In this document: piece by piece, positions 8,271 to 12,839 of the stretch
Layout: the number at the start of each line of letters is the position of its first letter
Position numbering within the stretch: the stretch's first letter is position 1
Assembly: GCA_001823505.1 (NCBI GenBank)
Contig: MHUS01000010.1
Span: 39,785-77,362, forward strand
Direction: 5' to 3'
Length of the DNA: 37,578 nt
Source of the DNA: Candidatus Yonathbacteria bacterium RIFCSPHIGHO2_01_FULL_51_10
GTDB taxonomy: Bacteria > Patescibacteriota > Minisyncoccia > Phycocordibacterales > UBA1539_B
The notes under the pieces: model-generated
Databases searched by the model: none
What the model was told of the DNA's origin: nothing
What the model saw: only the letters and a program-made list of their open reading frames with translations
Program-made: the position numbers and the translations under genes

Positions 8271-9398
8271 ATGGACTCGCTACTCGTTATCATCATCGCC
8301 ATTATCGCCGCTGTAATTGGTGCCACTGTGGTATTTTTTGTGGTCAAGGGCAATGCGTCAGGAGTACCTGCCCAGAACCAAAACGACGGTCTCATGCTCC
8401 TCCAGAACCAGATCCAGGGCTTCCAGGCGCAGATCGGCGACCTTGTGAAGACGGTAGACGCAAAGCTTGGCGACTCACAGCGTGATATGCGCGAGACCAC
8501 ACGCATTCAATTCTCAGAATCCCAGAAGCTTATCCAGTCAACCAATGAACAAGTCACCAAACACTTGATCGACGTCGCAAAAGGTGTCGCGGAGGCGAAT
8601 GAAGCGAGCAAGCAGGTGTTCACGATCGCAGATCAACTCCAAAACCTTGAGAAGGTCCTGAAGCACCAGAAACAGCGCGGGAACTTGGGTGAGGCAAGCT
8701 TGGAGCTCTCGCTCAATAACATCCTTCCACCGGATGCGTACGAGATGCAGCATCTTTTTCCGGGAGGAGATCAGGTTGATGCGATCATCAAAACAAAAGA
8801 AGGGGTTATCCCCGTGGACGCAAAGTTCTCACTCGATAACTACAACCGCGTGGTGAATGAGGATGATCCGGAGCGCAAACTGCTCCTCGAAAAAGATTTC
8901 CGTAATGACCTCAAGAAGCGCATTGATGAGACTGCAAAATATATCCGCGTAAAAGACGGCACGCTGCCGTTCGCCTTTATGTACATTCCCGCAGAAGGGA
9001 TCTACTACGACCTGCTCATCAACGACGTGGGGTCCAAGGTGAATGCCCGAAGCTTGATCGACTATGCGTACACGGAAAAAAACGTGATCATCGTATCGCC
9101 CACGACATTCTCTGCGTATCTGCAGGCAGTTCTCTATGGCTTTAAGGCGTTCAAGATAGAGGAGTCGGCAAAAGAGATCGCCAAGGAGGTGGAGAAGCTC
9201 GCACGCCACCTGCGCGCGTATGATGAACATTTCAAAAAAGTTGGGAAGTCGCTGGGCACCACCGTGAACCACTATGATGCCGCGCAGAAGGACTTTGGGA
9301 TGATAGAGAAGGATGTCTTTAAGATCACGGCAGGCAAAGCAGAGATCGGTTTTGAGGCCTTGGCGCTCGATAGGCCCGCGGATGAGGCGGGGGAGTAA
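8271..9398 (+). CDS. rmuC: DNA recombination protein RmuC
   Basis: N-terminal TM helix, coiled coil, then RGNLGEASLE..QVDAIIKT..VIPVDAKFSLDNY, typical of the RmuC nuclease-like domain. Confidence 0.9.
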   Translation: MDSLLVIIIAIIAAVIGATVVFFVVKGNASGVPAQNQNDGLMLLQNQIQGFQAQIGDLVKTVDAKLGDSQRDMRETTRIQFSESQKLIQSTNEQVTKHLIDVAKGVAEANEASKQVFTIADQLQNLEKVLKHQKQRGNLGEASLELSLNNILPPDAYEMQHLFPGGDQVDAIIKTKEGVIPVDAKFSLDNYNRVVNEDDPERKLLLEKDFRNDLKKRIDETAKYIRVKDGTLPFAFMYIPAEGIYYDLLINDVGSKVNARSLIDYAYTEKNVIIVSPTTFSAYLQAVLYGFKAFKIEESAKEIAKEVEKLARHLRAYDEHFKKVGKSLGTTVNHYDAAQKDFGMIEKDVFKITAGKAEIGFEALALDRPADEAGE

Positions 9399-9417
9399 AG
9401 TAGCTTCACAGAGAAAC

Positions 9418-9498
9418 TTGACATTGATCAAGACGGGCGGCAAGCAATACAAAATGGTTCCGGGTCAGACGCTTAAGATCGAGAAGCTTTTTGACGAG
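9418..9498 (+). pseudogene. rplU: remnant 5' end of ribosomal protein L21 gene (about 27 codons)
   Basis: From TTG 9418 it translates to MTLIKTGGKQYKMVPGQTLKIEKLFDE. Region 9425-9498 aligns gap-free to 11051-11124 of the intact rplU (64/74 nt by hand count). Homology stops after 9498, and the frame runs into unrelated sequence to TGA 9609. Confidence 0.7.
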
Positions 9499-9546
9499 CC
9501 AGACGCAAAAGAAGAGGGTTCGGGGTTGAATGTATCACGAAAATTA

Positions 9547-9575
9547 TTGACAGATTTTATTAAGTATGCTACACT
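9547..9575 (+). promoter_or_regulatory. sigma70-like promoter for the 92-aa orphan
   Basis: TTGACA (9547-9552), 17 nt, TACACT (9570-9575). Confidence 0.45.
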
Positions 9576-9649
9576 AATTTTAGTAAACAGGCAGTACTTT
9601 GTAATTTGATTATCCTCGAGAAATCGAATCGACCTGAGGAGGAGTGGAG

Positions 9650-9928
9650 ATGACTAAACTAAGTGCAGTCAGAGTAGAAAACCTGGTTGGTGGGCAAATG
9701 TACTTCCTCGTTGATTACACACTTAAAGCAACGTGTAGTAAGCCATTTATCGTATGTGGTGTTCGACGGAAGGACTCGCATGGACACACATGGACGTGGA
9801 AAATCCTTATTAAAAAAGCCGACGGTTCGCGGGCATGGGTTCCAGACGCATATTGGTTTCAGTTCTTTAAATTCACACCCTTCGCATACAGAAATAAAAG
9901 GATCGAGCTTGGACAAGCACCACTGTAA
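9650..9928 (+). CDS. hypothetical protein, 92 aa, aromatic-rich
   Basis: ATG 9650 is preceded by GAGGAGGAG (9636-9644). It has its own promoter and terminator. No family recognised. Confidence 0.6.
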   Translation: MTKLSAVRVENLVGGQMYFLVDYTLKATCSKPFIVCGVRRKDSHGHTWTWKILIKKADGSRAWVPDAYWFQFFKFTPFAYRNKRIELGQAPL

Positions 9929-9947
9929 CCTATGATCAAAACTTCAT

Positions 9948-9993
9948 GATAACGTACCTAGGCACTTTGCACTTTATGGTACGTTATTTTTTT
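9948..9993 (+). terminator. intrinsic terminator (long loop)
   Basis: ATAACGTACC / GGTACGTTAT stem with a 19-nt loop, followed by T7. Confidence 0.55.
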
Positions 9994-10044
9994 GCAAAAT
10001 CCCACATGTTTTAGGATTGTCATATAAGTGTTACAATAATATTT

Positions 10045-10920
10045 ATGATAACAAAAATTGCATTACTACAAATAAATGCGGGGGAAACTGTCTTTGAAAA
10101 TTTTGAGATTGCTAAAACTCATATTGAAAAAGCGGCACAAAATGGAGCTGACATTGCGCTTCTCCCCGAATTATGGAATGTTGGGTACACATCTCCCGAT
10201 GAGTACGTATTCGGGAGGGACACCTGGGGTAAATCAGCTTTTTTCGTGGGAGATAGCGAGTTTGTAAAATACCAAGAGCTTGCGAAGGAGGTGGGGATCG
10301 CTATCCTATTGCCATTTTTAGAAAAAAATACTCAGGGAAATTTTTATAATTCCGCAACGCTTATCGACTACACAGGAGAGGTTATTTTACATTATCAAAA
10401 AGTACACACGGTGGATAAGGCGTGGGAGATACTATTTACGTCAGGAGAGAATTTTCCGGTTGTTGATCTAAAAACAAAAAAAGGGATGGCAAAAGTAGGT
10501 TGTATGATTTGCTACGACAGAGAGTTCCCCGAATCAGCGCGAATCCTTATGCTCAATGGTGCAGAAATAATTTTGGTTCCCAATGCGTGCGTTTTGGATA
10601 GTAATCGGTTAACGCAATTTCAATCTCGCGGGTTTGAAAATATGCTTGGAGTTGCAATGACTAATTATCCAAAACCAAAATTTAATGGCAAATCTTGCGC
10701 ATTTGACGGAATGCGTGTTAAGGGAGAGGACTACAACCCTCTTGTGGTTATGGCAGACGAAGAAGAGGGCATCTGGTATGCTAACTTTGATATCGATATA
10801 TTGCGAGCATATCGTGAGAAAGAAATCTGGGGTAATGCTTATCGCAAACCAAGATTGTATGGAAAACTCACTGAGGACAACATTCACCAACCCTTCGTAA
10901 GGAAAGATGCACGGCGCTAG
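10045..10920 (+). CDS. carbon-nitrogen hydrolase (nitrilase superfamily), 291 aa
   Basis: Glu-Lys-Cys triad contexts: ALLPELWN, HYQKVH, GCMICYDREFPE. The gene is AT-rich relative to its flanks. Confidence 0.9.
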   Translation: MITKIALLQINAGETVFENFEIAKTHIEKAAQNGADIALLPELWNVGYTSPDEYVFGRDTWGKSAFFVGDSEFVKYQELAKEVGIAILLPFLEKNTQGNFYNSATLIDYTGEVILHYQKVHTVDKAWEILFTSGENFPVVDLKTKKGMAKVGCMICYDREFPESARILMLNGAEIILVPNACVLDSNRLTQFQSRGFENMLGVAMTNYPKPKFNGKSCAFDGMRVKGEDYNPLVVMADEEEGIWYANFDIDILRAYREKEIWGNAYRKPRLYGKLTEDNIHQPFVRKDARR

Positions 10921-10974
10921 ACGAGTTTGCATATTACCGCAAACATACTTGCATTTCTTTTGAAATAGGGTAGA

Positions 10975-11355
10975 ATGGTTCCCATTATGGCTACAAAGGC
11001 AACAACAATGACGACAAAAAAGCTCTCTAAAAAAGAGGGGGATTTCGCGGTGATCAAGACAGGAGGCAAGCAGTACAAAGTGGTCCCCGGTCAAACGCTT
11101 AAGATCGAGAAGCTCTCTGATGAGCTCAAGGCGGGGGACGCAGTATCCTTTGATCAGGTGCTCCTCGTCACGGCGGGAGGCAAAGTGTCCGTAGGCACCC
11201 CCACCATCGCAGGTGCGACCGTCAAGGCAGAATATGTCCGCGGTGGCAGGGCAGACAAGATCACCGTGATCAAATACAAGCAAAAGAGTCGCTATTTTAA
11301 GAAGCGCGGCCACAAGCAGCCCTTCGCGGAGGTAAAGATCTCAACGATTAAGTAG
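10975..11355 (+). CDS. rplU: 50S ribosomal protein L21 with an unusual Lys/Thr-rich N-terminal extension
   Basis: AVIKTGGKQYKVVPGQTLKIEKL...DKITVIKYKQKSRYFKKRGHKQPFAEVKI. The start is uncertain. ATG 10975 overlaps a TAGAAT -10 (10971-10976, with TTGCAT at 10949-10954), so ATG 10987 or 11008 may be the real start. Confidence 0.92.
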   Translation: MVPIMATKATTMTTKKLSKKEGDFAVIKTGGKQYKVVPGQTLKIEKLSDELKAGDAVSFDQVLLVTAGGKVSVGTPTIAGATVKAEYVRGGRADKITVIKYKQKSRYFKKRGHKQPFAEVKISTIK

Positions 11356-11361
11356 CAAAAT

Positions 11362-11389
11362 AAAATCCCCGAGCATGCTCGGGGATTTT
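11362..11389 (+). terminator. intrinsic terminator
   Basis: Perfect 28-nt palindrome AAAATCCCCGAGCA/TGCTCGGGGATTTT, with A and T runs in the arms. Confidence 0.75.
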
Positions 11390-11410
11390 GCAACTTCAGT
11401 ACGATGGTGG

Positions 11411-11518
11411 TCAGTCTTCGTCGTTCAAACCAGACACATCCAGGAATTCTTTAAAAAGAAGCCAGCCGATCAACAAGACTGCTATTCCAAGCAATATGAA
11501 TTTTAACCATAAAGGCAT
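11411..11518 (-). CDS. small membrane peptide, 35 aa (not in ORF track)
   Basis: MPLWLKFILLGIAVLLIGWLLFKEFLDVSGLNDED. SD AAAGGAGAA lies upstream. One TM helix plus an acidic tail. Confidence 0.5.
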   Translation of the reverse strand: MPLWLKFILLGIAVLLIGWLLFKEFLDVSGLNDED

Positions 11519-11565
11519 GGCGTGTTCTCCTTTGTTGGTGTTCGGAACAATTCTCTAGTACTCTG

Positions 11566-11685
11566 CTACTCTTTTTGTCGCTCTGCAGGGGCTCTTTTCC
11601 AGAGCGCGTACAGTCCAGCAATCAACAAACCAATGAGTACGAGGATTATCCCCGCACCACCTACAATTGTTTCGATAATCTGCAT
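11566..11685 (-). CDS. small membrane peptide, 39 aa (not in ORF track)
   Basis: MQIIETIVGGAGIILVLIGLLIAGLYALWKRAPAERQKE. SD AAAGGAGAA at 5-6 nt spacing. It starts 21 nt after the stop of the preceding peptide gene. Confidence 0.5.
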   Translation of the reverse strand: MQIIETIVGGAGIILVLIGLLIAGLYALWKRAPAERQKE

Positions 11686-11706
11686 CTGATTTCTCCTTTG
11701 GTTGAA

Positions 11707-11838
11707 TTAATTCGTGTGCCAATCGTCGTATTCGTCACACGCTTCTTGCTCAACTGCCGAATTTCTCAGAAACCGCAAGACGAAGACAGCCAGACAAAGA
11801 ACCAGTGCTACTCCTACAATAGCGAGCGCTATTTTCAT
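11707..11838 (-). CDS. small membrane peptide, 43 aa (not in ORF track)
   Basis: MKIALAIVGVALVLCLAVFVLRFLRNSAVEQEACDEYDDWHTN. SD GGGAGG at 8-nt spacing. It starts 24 nt after the stop of the 98-aa gene. Confidence 0.5.
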   Translation of the reverse strand: MKIALAIVGVALVLCLAVFVLRFLRNSAVEQEACDEYDDWHTN

Positions 11839-11862
11839 TGCAAGTACCTCCCATTATTAAGC

Positions 11863-12159
11863 TCATTCGATTAGCGAAAAATTATTCTTGGAAAGATTTT
11901 GAATCTCCAGTAGAACTTCCCCATCGAGATTAGCTGGATCATTTTCGTTTCTCGGCGAAGTCGCATCTTTGCGCCATAGGTCAAACAAAGAATCCTTGAT
12001 CGCCCAAGCAAACGCGAGTGAAATGAGGGCAATGTCAAACAGCCAAATGTCCGGATTTTTTGAGGGATGACTTACCTTGTCAAAGATGAGAACCAAGGGG
12101 AGTGCCAATACGAGTAAAACGGTCAATACGACCGCCGTTCTTCGGATGCATTTCTTCAT
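11863..12159 (-). CDS. hypothetical membrane protein, 98 aa (two predicted TM helices)
   Basis: ATG 12159 is preceded by AAAGGAGA. Hydrophobic segments AVVLTVLLVLALPLVLIF and IWLFDIALISLAFAWAI. Confidence 0.6.
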   Translation of the reverse strand: MKKCIRRTAVVLTVLLVLALPLVLIFDKVSHPSKNPDIWLFDIALISLAFAWAIKDSLFDLWRKDATSPRNENDPANLDGEVLLEIQNLSKNNFSLIE

Positions 12160-12196
12160 CAGAGCTCTCCTTTGTCGTGAGGAACAATTCCCTAAT

Positions 12197-12225
12197 ACTC
12201 TAGCGCTACGGTTTTAAATAGTCAA
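12197..12225 (-). promoter_or_regulatory. sigma70-like promoter for the small-membrane-peptide operon
   Basis: Minus strand: TTGACT (12225-12220, overlapping the recR stop), 17 nt, TAGAGT (12202-12197). Confidence 0.5.
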
Positions 12226-12839
12226 CCGCGGTTTTTAAGCGCGTTCTTAAGCGTCTCTTTGTCGGCGTATTCAAGCTCAGCGCCCGTGGAGAGTCCGCGG
12301 CCGAGGGCGGTAACCTGAAGGTCGTATTTTTTTAGGAGAGATTCAAGCGTTTTTGATATATAGAGCGCGGTGTGTTCGCCTTCGGCATTGGCGCTCGTAG
12401 CCAGGATGATCTCACGGAGGCCATCTTCTTTTGCTGCGCGTTCAACCTCAGTAAGGAGCTCTCGAATACGGATTTTCTTTGCCGGTTCTTGCTCTAGAAA
12501 GGGGAGGGAGCCGCCCAATACAAAGAACCGCCCGCGATATGCATCGCTCGCGCGGATCGCATCAAGGTCGGTGTCCCGCTCCACGGCCATCATGAGTGCC
12601 GGGTCACGCCCTTTGTCAGAACACTCAGGGCAAAGTGCGACTGATCCTGTGTTGGGATAAAATCGGAAACAGTGCGGGCATTGTGCGCTGGCTTTCTTGA
12701 GGGCTGCCAACGCCGCCTCAAGTGCTGAGATCTCTGCCGGCCCGCGAGAAAGCAGGTGATAGACGAACCGCTTCGCCTGCCGCGGCCCAACCCCGGGGAA
12801 TTTTAAAAACTTTTCTGCAAGTGTTTGAAGTGCGTCCAT
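12222..12839 (-). CDS. recR: recombination protein RecR
   Basis: KFPGVGPRQAKRFVYHLL HhH motif, C4 zinc finger CPHC...CPEC, Toprim region VERDTDLDAI...ILATSANAEGE. Confidence 0.95.
   Translation of the reverse strand: MDALQTLAEKFLKFPGVGPRQAKRFVYHLLSRGPAEISALEAALAALKKASAQCPHCFRFYPNTGSVALCPECSDKGRDPALMMAVERDTDLDAIRASDAYRGRFFVLGGSLPFLEQEPAKKIRIRELLTEVERAAKEDGLREIILATSANAEGEHTALYISKTLESLLKKYDLQVTALGRGLSTGAELEYADKETLKNALKNRG

Follow-up and report, generated by a model that had tools for sequence, protein, structure and literature searches.

CPR bacteria have tiny genomes with few recognisable mobile elements, and gene gain in these organisms is, to our knowledge, poorly documented. In the groundwater bacterium Candidatus Yonathbacteria RIFCSPHIGHO2_01_FULL_51_10, a fragment of the ribosomal protein gene rplU lies downstream of rmuC and is separated from the complete rplU gene by two genes of low G+C content, and the question raised by this locus is how the fragment and the two genes came to be there. 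The original prediction, drawn from a stretch of 37,578 nucleotides (hereafter the window, whose positions are used throughout), was that a cassette had been inserted with replacement of the 5' end of rplU. The insert and the scar beside it are real and instructive, and they are no new class of mobile element; we consider the arrangement to be probably the scar of homology-facilitated illegitimate recombination (HFIR) with a sister lineage, in a hot spot between rmuC and rplU.

Results

A gapless direct repeat links positions 9425-9499 to 11051-11125 (65/75 nucleotides identical, offset 1626) and was recovered with E = 6e-21 when the rplU region was compared with the window by BLASTN; the 64 of 74 identities first counted by hand for 9425-9498 and 11051-11124 were reproduced by the computed alignment. 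The longest identical run within the repeat is 20 nt. Over the in-frame part the two copies share 62/72 bases, far above the similarity of any two L21 N-termini placed by chance, since either copy shares just 44-54/72 with the rplU genes of eight relatives and 50-54/72 with the nearest of those sampled. By this comparison the copies are each other's closest relatives, and both encode a V and a D that the other rplU sequences compared do not have. Shuffle tests gave no homology past the 75 nt on either side (p 0.17-0.93), and partial rplU duplicates, sought in 92 related loci, were found only in this genome.

Relatives' contigs often break in the rmuC-rplU interval (L001, L088, L089), which suggests strain variation at the site and would fit an assembly artefact in which two co-occurring strains were joined via shared rplU k-mers. 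Against this, 13 contigs obtained with various samples and assemblers (ENA scaffold and k141 contigs, Logan, JGI) match this part of the window at 99.9-100% identity, and nine of them span the left junction and 12 the right; moreover, the left junction at 9499/9500 is not within repeated sequence, and the repeat is only 75 nt long with 87% identity. Both junctions of the predicted insertion are thus supported at the assembly level, and to the extent that assemblies can tell, misassembly is ruled out; we find the artefact barely credible. The sampled population of this genome is clonal.

The left copy (9425-9499, plus strand) comprises 25 codons of the L21 core, about codons 3-27. It is contained in an open reading frame of 63 aa (9418-9609, plus strand), which starts with TTG 19 nt past the stop codon of rmuC (8271-9398, plus strand; Pfam RmuC, E 9e-53) and which matches Pfam Ribosomal_L21p only partially, over profile positions 4-41, at 24.7 bits against a cut-off of 27. 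This reading frame is a gene fragment and not a gene. Neither remnants of an extension or promoter before the copy, at 9399-9424 (p 0.93), nor an rplU continuation after it were found: homology to rplU stops sharply at 9499/9500, presumably an illegitimate junction, and a filler of 47 nt (9500-9546) then leads to the promoter of the inserted module. This filler does not significantly resemble rplU, the module as it occurs in other genomes, or any of the loci retrieved. In more distant relatives rplU starts about 20 nt after rmuC in a compact rmuC-TATAGT-ATG geometry; the left copy does not have this geometry, and its GG codons lie 10-13 nt nearer to rmuC than those of the compact-type genes. 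The suggestion that the fragment marks the position at which rplU starts in cassette-free alleles did not hold, since promoter, extension and ATG are all missing from it.

The intact rplU gene (10987-11355, plus strand) encodes a full-length L21 of 122 aa, with 112 bits against Pfam PF00829 (cut-off 27) and 109.6 bits, or 110 when rounded, against TIGR00061 (cut-off 43.7). Its start is the conserved ATG at 10987, although the mechanical reading frame begins at 10975; the ATG and the MATK... start are kept in relatives, and 122 aa is also the call in L081. The right repeat copy (11051-11125, plus strand) lies inside this functional gene, downstream of a Lys/Thr-rich extension (10987-11043, plus strand) that is typical of the clade. 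The native promoter (10949-10976, plus strand) consists of TTGCAT (10949-10954), a spacer of 16 nt and TAGAAT (10971-10976); it is kept in an alignment with L087, L088, L090 and L091, and its region has 26/29 nt the same as in L091 and L092. Promoter and extension had been regarded as atypical, but the nearest relatives (P0003-P0008, 75-86% identical) have both as a rule, including the cassette-free L087 and L090, so that they are no evidence of import. An Rfam scan of 9200-12300 gave nothing near threshold and no L21 leader.

Under HFIR with a sister lineage, a left copy that lacks promoter, extension and TATAGT-ATG alike would imply either an unusual rplU start in an unsampled sister or a second deletion. 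No lineage with an unusual start is required if a circularised donor carrying the module, the promoter, the extension and core codons 1-27 was integrated by a single Campbell-type crossover in the rplU 5' region, and if a later deletion, perhaps favoured by the silencing of a truncated L21, stripped the left copy of both promoter and extension. Such a course of events would also account for the direct repeats around the insert and for the abrupt end of the left copy on its right side. Two additional steps are required, however (circularisation and deletion), a deletion ending exactly at the extension/core boundary would be a coincidence, and the stretch at 9399-9424 bears no trace of extension or promoter; we regard it as very improbable.

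The rmuC gene is followed by rplU on the same strand in 64 of the relatives examined, and in the closest cassette-free ones, L087 and L090, only 141 nt separate rmuC from the L21 core, which bears out the reading of the cassette as an insertion relative to an ancestral rmuC-rplU adjacency. Cargo of 0.8-2.6 kb lies between the two genes in 13/64 relatives, and eight of the ten such cargo reading frames scanned have no Pfam match. The ATPases of L001 and L091 are 95% identical (dS 0.64), whereas their RmuC proteins are only 67-70% identical (dS saturated) and their cargo is different. L088 and L090 are 96% identical from recR rightwards and agree at 289/297 in the rplU core, but are unrelated upstream of the promoter and share only 30/90 in the extension, and the breakpoint between them is the extension/core boundary, where the repeat of the window starts. 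These alignments demonstrate a recombination hot spot, in which rmuC alleles, cargo genes and the rplU extension are swapped among near-identical genomes. Exact-protein look-ups of RmuC, L21 and the hydrolase, made to find a donor or cassette-free allele within the species, gave the same arrangement only; a search for L21 homologues returned nothing between 86% and 100% identity, and the exact back-translated pattern KQYK[MV]VPGQTLKIEKL had no match in metagenome contigs.

The ten differences between the copies comprise eight synonymous third-position changes and two replacements (M/V and F/S), as first read, and over 24 codons dS is 0.91, dN 0.036 and dN/dS 0.04. The spread over codon positions expected under neutrality, for a segmental duplication followed by pseudogene decay, was not found (P 0.002-0.012); in simulations of a local duplication with one copy neutral, two or fewer non-synonymous codons were seen in 0.2-1.2% of runs. 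Within this basis of 24 codons and 10 differences, the earlier claim of divergence under purifying selection, as opposed to local duplication with decay, is upheld, and the pattern argues that the copies diverged in two lineages. Third-position G+C (GC3), taken in frame, is host-like in both (left 0.71, right 0.67), so neither was derived from the low-GC source of the cassette.

A partial copy of rplU made locally, for instance by unequal crossing-over or by slippage during replication when the module inserted, with decay of the left copy thereafter, would agree with the copies being each other's closest relatives with the same host-like GC3, with V>M and S>F both mapping to the left copy when relatives serve as outgroups, and with the lack of any donor lineage among our search results. 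However, a dN/dS of 0.04 with eight synonymous changes is improbable if one copy was neutral throughout, and a dS of about 0.9 predicts many non-synonymous changes and probably indels, none of which are seen; gene conversion could mask decay, yet it would erase the synonymous differences too. A local origin is thus quite unlikely.

Between the copies lies a module that spans from its own promoter to the stop codon of a hydrolase gene. The promoter (9547-9575, plus strand), found by a promoter scan as TTGACA-17-TACACT with TG before the -10 (10/12 matches), forms the left boundary of the conserved module and is kept in L095/L097 and L108; in L108 its -35 shares bases with the stop codon of the preceding gene, which is pgk-like by eye. 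A conserved leader motif, CTCGAGAAATCGAAT (9614-9630, plus strand), stands 5' of the ribosome-binding site of orf92; it has exact 14-15-nt matches in L093/L094 and L095-L097, is also seen in the alignment and has no stable fold. The orf92 gene (9650-9928, plus strand) encodes an aromatic-rich protein of 92 aa that had been taken for an orphan, which it is not: it is the conserved partner of the hydrolase in a module found at other loci in Paceibacteria, and its homologue lies directly 5' of the hydrolase gene (62% identical in L095-L097, 80% in L108). Among 1.84 billion representatives there is just one other 50%-identity cluster; no match was obtained in Pfam, NCBIfam or PADLOC and no relatives in a profile scan of metagenome contigs, and an AlphaFold2 model from a three-sequence alignment was too poor for fold search (pLDDT 50). 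A hairpin with a 10-bp stem and a U run (9949-9993, plus strand; MFE -16.6 kcal/mol, z -3.5), a putative intrinsic terminator or attenuator, sits between orf92 and the hydrolase gene and has an equivalent in L108 (z -3.8).

The module ends with a carbon-nitrogen hydrolase (10045-10920, plus strand; Pfam CN_hydrolase, E 1e-33), whose 116.8 bits against PF00795 (cut-off 23.2) place it in the nitrilase superfamily; it is far under every NCBIfam equivalog cut-off and, with 108 bits against a cut-off of 410, is no equivalog of AguB, nor of another named enzyme. In an alignment with PDB 1j31 the PEL, KvH and iCyD motifs, which we take to hold the Glu-Lys-Cys catalytic triad, are conserved. Orthologues with 72-83% identity occur in five different contexts. 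The same module follows SHMT in L095-L097 and the pgk-like gene in L108, and only in L088 is the hydrolase upstream of the rplU promoter, with no rplU fragment visible there. The sole relative recovered from viral contigs, in a scan with the hydrolase, was 38% identical, and PADLOC assigned nothing to the hydrolase or to the cargo beside it, its one match being a generic RmuC-domain one for rmuC. The low G+C content first noticed in spot counts was borne out, with 0.375-0.43 in the interval against 0.50-0.59 in the flanks; GC3 is 0.42 in orf92 and 0.38 in the hydrolase gene, compared with 0.60-0.71 in the ATPase gene, rmuC and rplU. In its composition the cassette is foreign. The hydrolase has a dS of 1.0 between the window and L088, whereas host genes of that pair are saturated (pS 0.75-0.85), which argues for horizontal transfer of the module.

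No integrase or transposase appears among the precomputed Pfam assignments for the genes of the 16.9 kb surrounding the insert (L081), in line with the first reading of the locus, and none is annotated within about 8 kb; the insert contains no genes besides orf92 and the hydrolase gene, and no terminal inverted repeats with arms at its borders were found. The left repeat abuts the insert at 9499/9500, while the right repeat, at 11051, lies about 105 nt past the insert edge (about 10946), the sequence between being the clade-conserved promoter and extension. A site-specific element or genomic island was rejected on the grounds that there is no recombinase, that the repeats do not abut both ends and that the target sites elsewhere are other ones; an IS element or composite transposon was rejected in the absence of a transposase and of border inverted repeats, and a diverged repeat of 75 nt is unlike an exact target-site duplication of 2-15 nt. 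A MAFFT hint of a decayed rplU fragment at the left border of the module in L095 was also rejected, by local alignment against shuffles (p = 0.2). The L095 flank weakly resembles the rplU promoter (p = 0.016), a likeness that probably reflects a shared promoter consensus. Since the module occurs at other loci without a significant rplU-like flank, rplU is not a specific integration target.

These results bear on the replacement first proposed, in which a resident rplU began at 9418 and a cassette carrying promoter, extension and the first 27 core codons replaced its 5' end, in the manner of an island that targets rplU. The geometry of the repeat (left fragment, insert, complete gene) fits this proposal, as do the signature of purifying selection, the rplU start about 20 nt after rmuC in distant relatives, and the comparison of L088 with L090, in which the segment upstream of the core, extension included, is exchangeable. 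The promoter and extension thought to be imported are, however, the clade norm and present in the cassette-free L087 and L090, the GC3 of the right copy is host-like, unlike that of the cassette, and the left copy has neither an ATG nor a TATAGT, with its GG codons displaced towards rmuC. An element that targets rplU also accords poorly with the absence of a recombinase and with the other positions of the module. Replacement in the form proposed is unlikely and its targeting part is not supported, but a replaced 5' end is possible as a sub-case of HFIR.

Discussion

According to HFIR with a sister lineage, which we favour, the left copy would be a dead rplU fragment, derived from a sister Yonathbacteria lineage or from the resident gene by integrase-free recombination. 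DNA of a close relative (synonymous divergence about 0.9) would have entered the cell and undergone homologous recombination at one end, in a conserved flank, which would be either rmuC with the ATPase gene or the rplU body with the genes that follow it; at the other end an illegitimate joint would have formed at 9499/9500, within codon 27-28 of the L21 core. Because this joint would lie upstream of the crossover by homology, the core's first 25 codons would be doubled, with one set in the fragment and one in the working gene. A close relative is the proposed donor because the copies share 62/72 bases compared with 50-54/72, the V and D residues and a host-like GC3. The module between the copies may stem from a lower-GC Paceibacterium, and would relocate between genomes without a recombinase of its own. 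The HFIR mechanism, and the arrival of the module and the scar as one event, we infer, the topology from one junction only; either the rmuC side or the rplU side may have been imported.

In HFIR, linear DNA is integrated by homology at one end and by an illegitimate joint at the other (PMC3240628), and the process is known from natural transformation in Acinetobacter baylyi, Streptococcus pneumoniae and Pseudomonas stutzeri (reviewed in PMC3240628). Our locus is similar in having foreign DNA beside a conserved anchor with no integrase, what would be an illegitimate joint at one end and a homologous one at the other, and a small insert of foreign composition. It differs in that the process would be read from a fossil that an uncultured CPR bacterium has left in nature and was not observed, and in that the joint would have given a partial duplication of the anchor gene, whereas deletion is more usual in HFIR. 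An explanation proposed for Rhs and T6SS loci follows the same logic: orphan fragments that were displaced there still carry some of the constant region (PMC5361080 and the work on Rhs C-terminal displacement that it cites). As in those displacement arrays, a conserved gene segment would anchor incoming variable DNA with no dedicated recombinase, and a displaced orphan with a diverged repeat of the constant region remains; here, in mirror image, it is the 5' end and not the 3' tip that would be displaced, the anchor is a ribosomal protein gene and not a toxin, and there is a single scar and not an array. Integrative elements with att sites in tRNA, tmRNA or protein genes likewise leave foreign DNA flanked by an imperfect gene-end repeat with the target intact, but our locus has no integrase, the module is not site-specific where it occurs in other genomes, and the right repeat is found about 105 nt inside native promoter-plus-extension sequence and not at the border of the insert.

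A broader reading, which we hold to be rather doubtful, is that the conserved rplU 5' core and rmuC form a recurrent, recombinase-free homologous anchor in Paceibacteria, of which this scar would be the first fossil intermediate. The L088/L090 breakpoint and the rmuC swap between L001 and L091 point in this direction; only one scar was seen among 92 loci. If true, promoter-to-stop modules, rmuC alleles and even the L21 extension would be exchanged between lineages at this anchor, as a 5'-end counterpart of the tip displacement of Rhs and T6SS loci.

For this clade, the analysis also corrects an annotation trap, in that the Lys/Thr-rich extension of L21 and its separate promoter are native and not acquired. 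The locus itself represents a concrete and datable case of a foreign two-gene module in a hot spot beside an essential ribosomal gene, and the scar, if our favoured explanation is right, would be the sign that DNA of a sister lineage took part.

Results and discussion

The window comes from a Paceibacteria/CPR genome of the Rifle aquifer, and its intact L21 is 100% identical to the annotated L21 of Candidatus Yonathbacteria bacterium RIFCSPHIGHO2_01_FULL_51_10. The gene order is GGDEF, P-type ATPase, rmuC (8271-9398), an rplU fragment (9425-9499, in an ORF at 9418-9609), orf92 (9650-9928), a C-N hydrolase gene (10045-10920) and intact rplU (10987-11355), with four tiny ORFs, recR and dnaB on the opposite strand. 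The interval from fragment to hydrolase is AT-rich, as originally predicted, with a G+C of 0.375-0.43 versus 0.50-0.59 and a GC3 of 0.42 and 0.38 for its two genes versus 0.60-0.71 in the ATPase, rmuC and rplU. Relatives were collected by an RmuC scan with one genome per GTDB species (80 loci). In 64 of the relatives examined, rmuC and rplU, in that order, shared a strand, and recR and dnaB usually came next in convergent orientation. This adjacency is therefore ancestral and the cassette an insertion; none of the 80 loci had the hydrolase or orf92 at this position.

The diverged direct repeat of the rplU 5' end was real: 9425-9499 aligned without gaps to 11051-11125 at an offset of 1626, with 65 of 75 nt identical (BLASTN E = 6e-21). 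In frame, the left and right copies shared 62/72 nt, while the rplU genes of eight relatives matched either copy at only 44-54/72 nt. The copies were each other's closest relatives, with derived residues in common and a host-like GC3 (0.71 and 0.67), and eight of their ten differences were synonymous, as first noted, the others being M/V and F/S. Homology ended sharply at both edges, with no significant similarity past the repeat on either side in shuffle-calibrated local alignments of the flanks (p 0.17-0.93). The scar was found in this genome only, a second rplU piece being absent from all 80 RmuC-scan loci. Both junctions were crossed within a set of thirteen contigs, 99.9-100% identical to the window here, that came from different samples and several record sets (scaffold and k141 contigs of ENA, Logan, JGI), and misassembly, a concern of the original prediction, is therefore very unlikely at the assembly level.

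The right copy had been thought unusual for its own promoter and Lys/Thr-rich N-terminal extension (10987-11043), but both are typical of the clade. Each of the closest L21 proteins, P0003-P0008 (75-86% identical), opens with an extension rich in Lys, Thr and Ala (MATKATKKTAAGSDFAVI... is one example), and the promoter, CTTGCA(A/T)-N16/17-TAGAAT with an ATG about 10 nt later, is kept in four related loci regardless of the upstream gene. Two of these, L087 and L090, are cassette-free (GGDEF, rmuC, 141 nt, L21 core); in L091 an unrelated 171-aa ORF separates rmuC from rplU, and in L088 a C-N hydrolase, 82% identical, lies directly upstream of rplU. The window promoter matches its L091 and L092 counterparts at 26/29 positions, and the conserved start is ATG 10987, giving 122 aa. 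The right copy is the native form, and its promoter and extension, as common traits of the clade, provide no evidence of import. In this extended type the ATG is about 10 nt past the -10 box (10949-10989; TAGAAT, ATG 10987), and the rplU mRNA is probably leaderless or near-leaderless, as it also appears to be in the compact type described next.

It is the left copy that is unusual. It starts 27 nt past the rmuC stop; a TTG (9418) in its reading frame lies 19 nt past that stop, and promoter, extension and ATG are all missing. A compact rplU type occurs in more distant Paceibacteria (L076, L006, L030 and others), with TATAGT right after the rmuC stop, an ATG 8-10 nt later and GG codons 47-50 nt past the stop; its -35 must lie within the rmuC coding end. 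Compared with that type, the left copy has no TATAGT, only a TTG, and its GG codons at +37, and so is a clean example of neither known rplU 5' architecture.

The 92-aa product of orf92 is not the orphan it was taken for, as homologues adjoin the hydrolase gene elsewhere. In L095-L097 a 97-aa homologue (62%) lies directly upstream of the hydrolase (79%), between SHMT and DUF2914/ArgS, and in L108 a homologue (80%) precedes the hydrolase gene start, the module there directly following a gene that resembles, by eye, a pgk C-terminus, whose stop codon the module -35 overlaps. DNA homology across contexts runs from the module promoter (TTGACAGAT...TATGCTA) to the hydrolase stop; a leader motif of 15 nt, CTCGAGAAATCGAAT, is conserved as well, as is a terminator-like hairpin 3' of orf92. 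The cassette is a conserved, relocating two-gene module. The orf92 family is very small, with a single further cluster at 50% identity in a set of 1.84 billion representatives, and its predicted structure (pLDDT 50) is too poor for use. The hydrolase belongs to the nitrilase superfamily; its PEL, KvH and iCyD motifs, which we take to hold the Glu-Lys-Cys triad, are conserved relative to PDB 1j31, and it matched no equivalog of a named enzyme. Between the window and L088 the hydrolase dS was 1.0, whereas rplU, recR and dnaB were saturated (pS 0.75-0.85), and its GC3 in the window, 0.38, is like that of low-GC Paceibacteria and unlike that of the host; the hydrolase gene has moved horizontally.

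The motif CTCGAGAAATCGAAT is a TCGA-GAAA-TCGA mini-palindrome in the leader of the small ORF preceding the hydrolase (exact 14-15-nt matches at window 9614-9630, L093:6522-6536 and L095:6277-6290); it occurs even in L093/L094, whose small ORF is no orf92 homologue. A role as operator or processing site is possible; no stable fold of the whole leader was found around 9614-9630. The SHMT-context module (L095:6300-6610, L097:1466-1772) has about 300 extra nt between leader and orf92 homologue that are missing in the window, with a called 52-aa ORF there in L097 (1475-1633). A 12-mer, TTGCATATTACC, is located just 3' of the hydrolase stop in the window (10926-10939) and just 5' of the module promoter in L095 (6188-6199), and a circular-permutation relationship between the module ends is possible. 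There is also a weak resemblance between the L095 flank and the window rplU promoter (local alignment p = 0.016), probably through a shared promoter consensus.

An integrase-mediated island is not supported, because the Pfam annotations of 16.9 kb around the insert include no recombinase, in keeping with the absence of integrase and transposase first reported, the right repeat is set about 105 nt into native sequence, and the module has no site specificity across contexts. For the last reason it is also not the rplU-targeting element first considered.

The rmuC-rplU interval is a recombination hot spot. Between L001 and L091 the ATPase C-termini were 95% identical (dS 0.64), whereas rmuC was only 67-70% identical with saturated dS and the downstream cargo differed, so rmuC alleles have been replaced by recombination between close relatives. 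The rmuC genes compared (L001:6001-7119, L091:1012-2070) are homologous to window 8271-9398; those of L087 and L090, 50-57% identical to all others, appear to form a third, divergent class of allele, and in both of these genomes GGDEF and rmuC have no ATPase between them. Identity between L088 and L090 was 96% from recR onwards and 289/297 across the core of rplU, but 47/60 in the promoter and only 30/90 in the extension, and the two were unrelated further upstream (hydrolase versus rmuC). Their breakpoint falls at the extension/core boundary, the same place where the window's repeat begins, and the low-complexity extension, unrelated between the regions compared (L088:1300-1830, L090:5900-6425), seems to change, by exchange or rebuilding, without the core. 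In 13/64 relatives 0.8-2.6 kb separates rmuC from rplU, and 8/10 scanned cargo ORFs had no Pfam match.

The spacer between rplU and recR (11356-12221, minus strand) is likewise AT-rich (0.44 G+C), with tiny ORFs of 35, 39, 43 and 98 aa that look like membrane proteins, judging from their hydrophobic sequences. Three of these ORFs are closely preceded by direct repeats of 22-30 nt with 80-82% identity (11535-11564/12172-12201; 11679-11700/12153-12174). This spacer holds one 85-aa ORF in L087, a 78-aa ORF and DUF1653 in L090 and nothing in L088, and thus there is variable DNA on both sides of rplU. Directly after the rplU stop, a perfect 14-nt palindromic hairpin (11362-11389; AAAATCCCCGAGCA/TGCTCGGGGATTTT) is probably a bidirectional terminator for rplU and the convergent small ORFs.

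Over the 24 codons shared by the two copies, the Nei-Gojobori method gave Sd 8, Nd 2, dS 0.91, dN 0.036 and dN/dS 0.04. When a local duplication was simulated with one copy decaying neutrally and the other constrained, only 0.2-1.2% of runs gave no more than two non-synonymous codons in ten differences, so both copies were in working genes for most of their divergence, and the earlier argument for purifying selection on both was sound. With a dS of 1.4 to L091 and 2.9 to L092, the second lineage was closer than any sampled genome; given the mutual closeness and host-like GC3 of the copies, it was a close, high-GC sister and not the low-GC genome that supplied the module.

Homology-facilitated illegitimate recombination, a described mechanism (PMC3240628), fits best. 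Linear DNA from the sister lineage would have found a homology anchor in one conserved flank and formed an illegitimate joint at 9499/9500; a joint placed 5' of the homologous crossover would duplicate the first 25 core codons. The proposed scar is analogous to those in the displacement model of T6SS and Rhs loci, where orphaned fragments retain part of the constant region (PMC5361080). Two directions are equally compatible. Either the resident gene began near 9418 and the module, promoter, extension and core arrived together, or the module, promoter, extension and rplU were resident, as in L088, and the ATPase/rmuC with a 5' piece of rplU would have arrived from the left, which agrees with the exchange of rmuC alleles in relatives. 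Of the original prediction, then, insertion stands relative to the ancestral adjacency in 64 relatives, and replacement of the rplU 5' end is the first of these directions. Either direction requires a sister lineage, outside the present sample, whose rplU start was unusual. Campbell-type integration followed by deletion, a less likely alternative, would dispense with such a lineage, but at the cost of more steps and a coincidental deletion endpoint.

With recombination facilitated by homology as the preferred reading, the feature is a recombination scar at the edge of an islet that was gained horizontally within a hot spot, and events of this kind are known. The rplU core may also, though less probably, be an anchor that CPR bacteria use repeatedly to exchange cargo without a recombinase.
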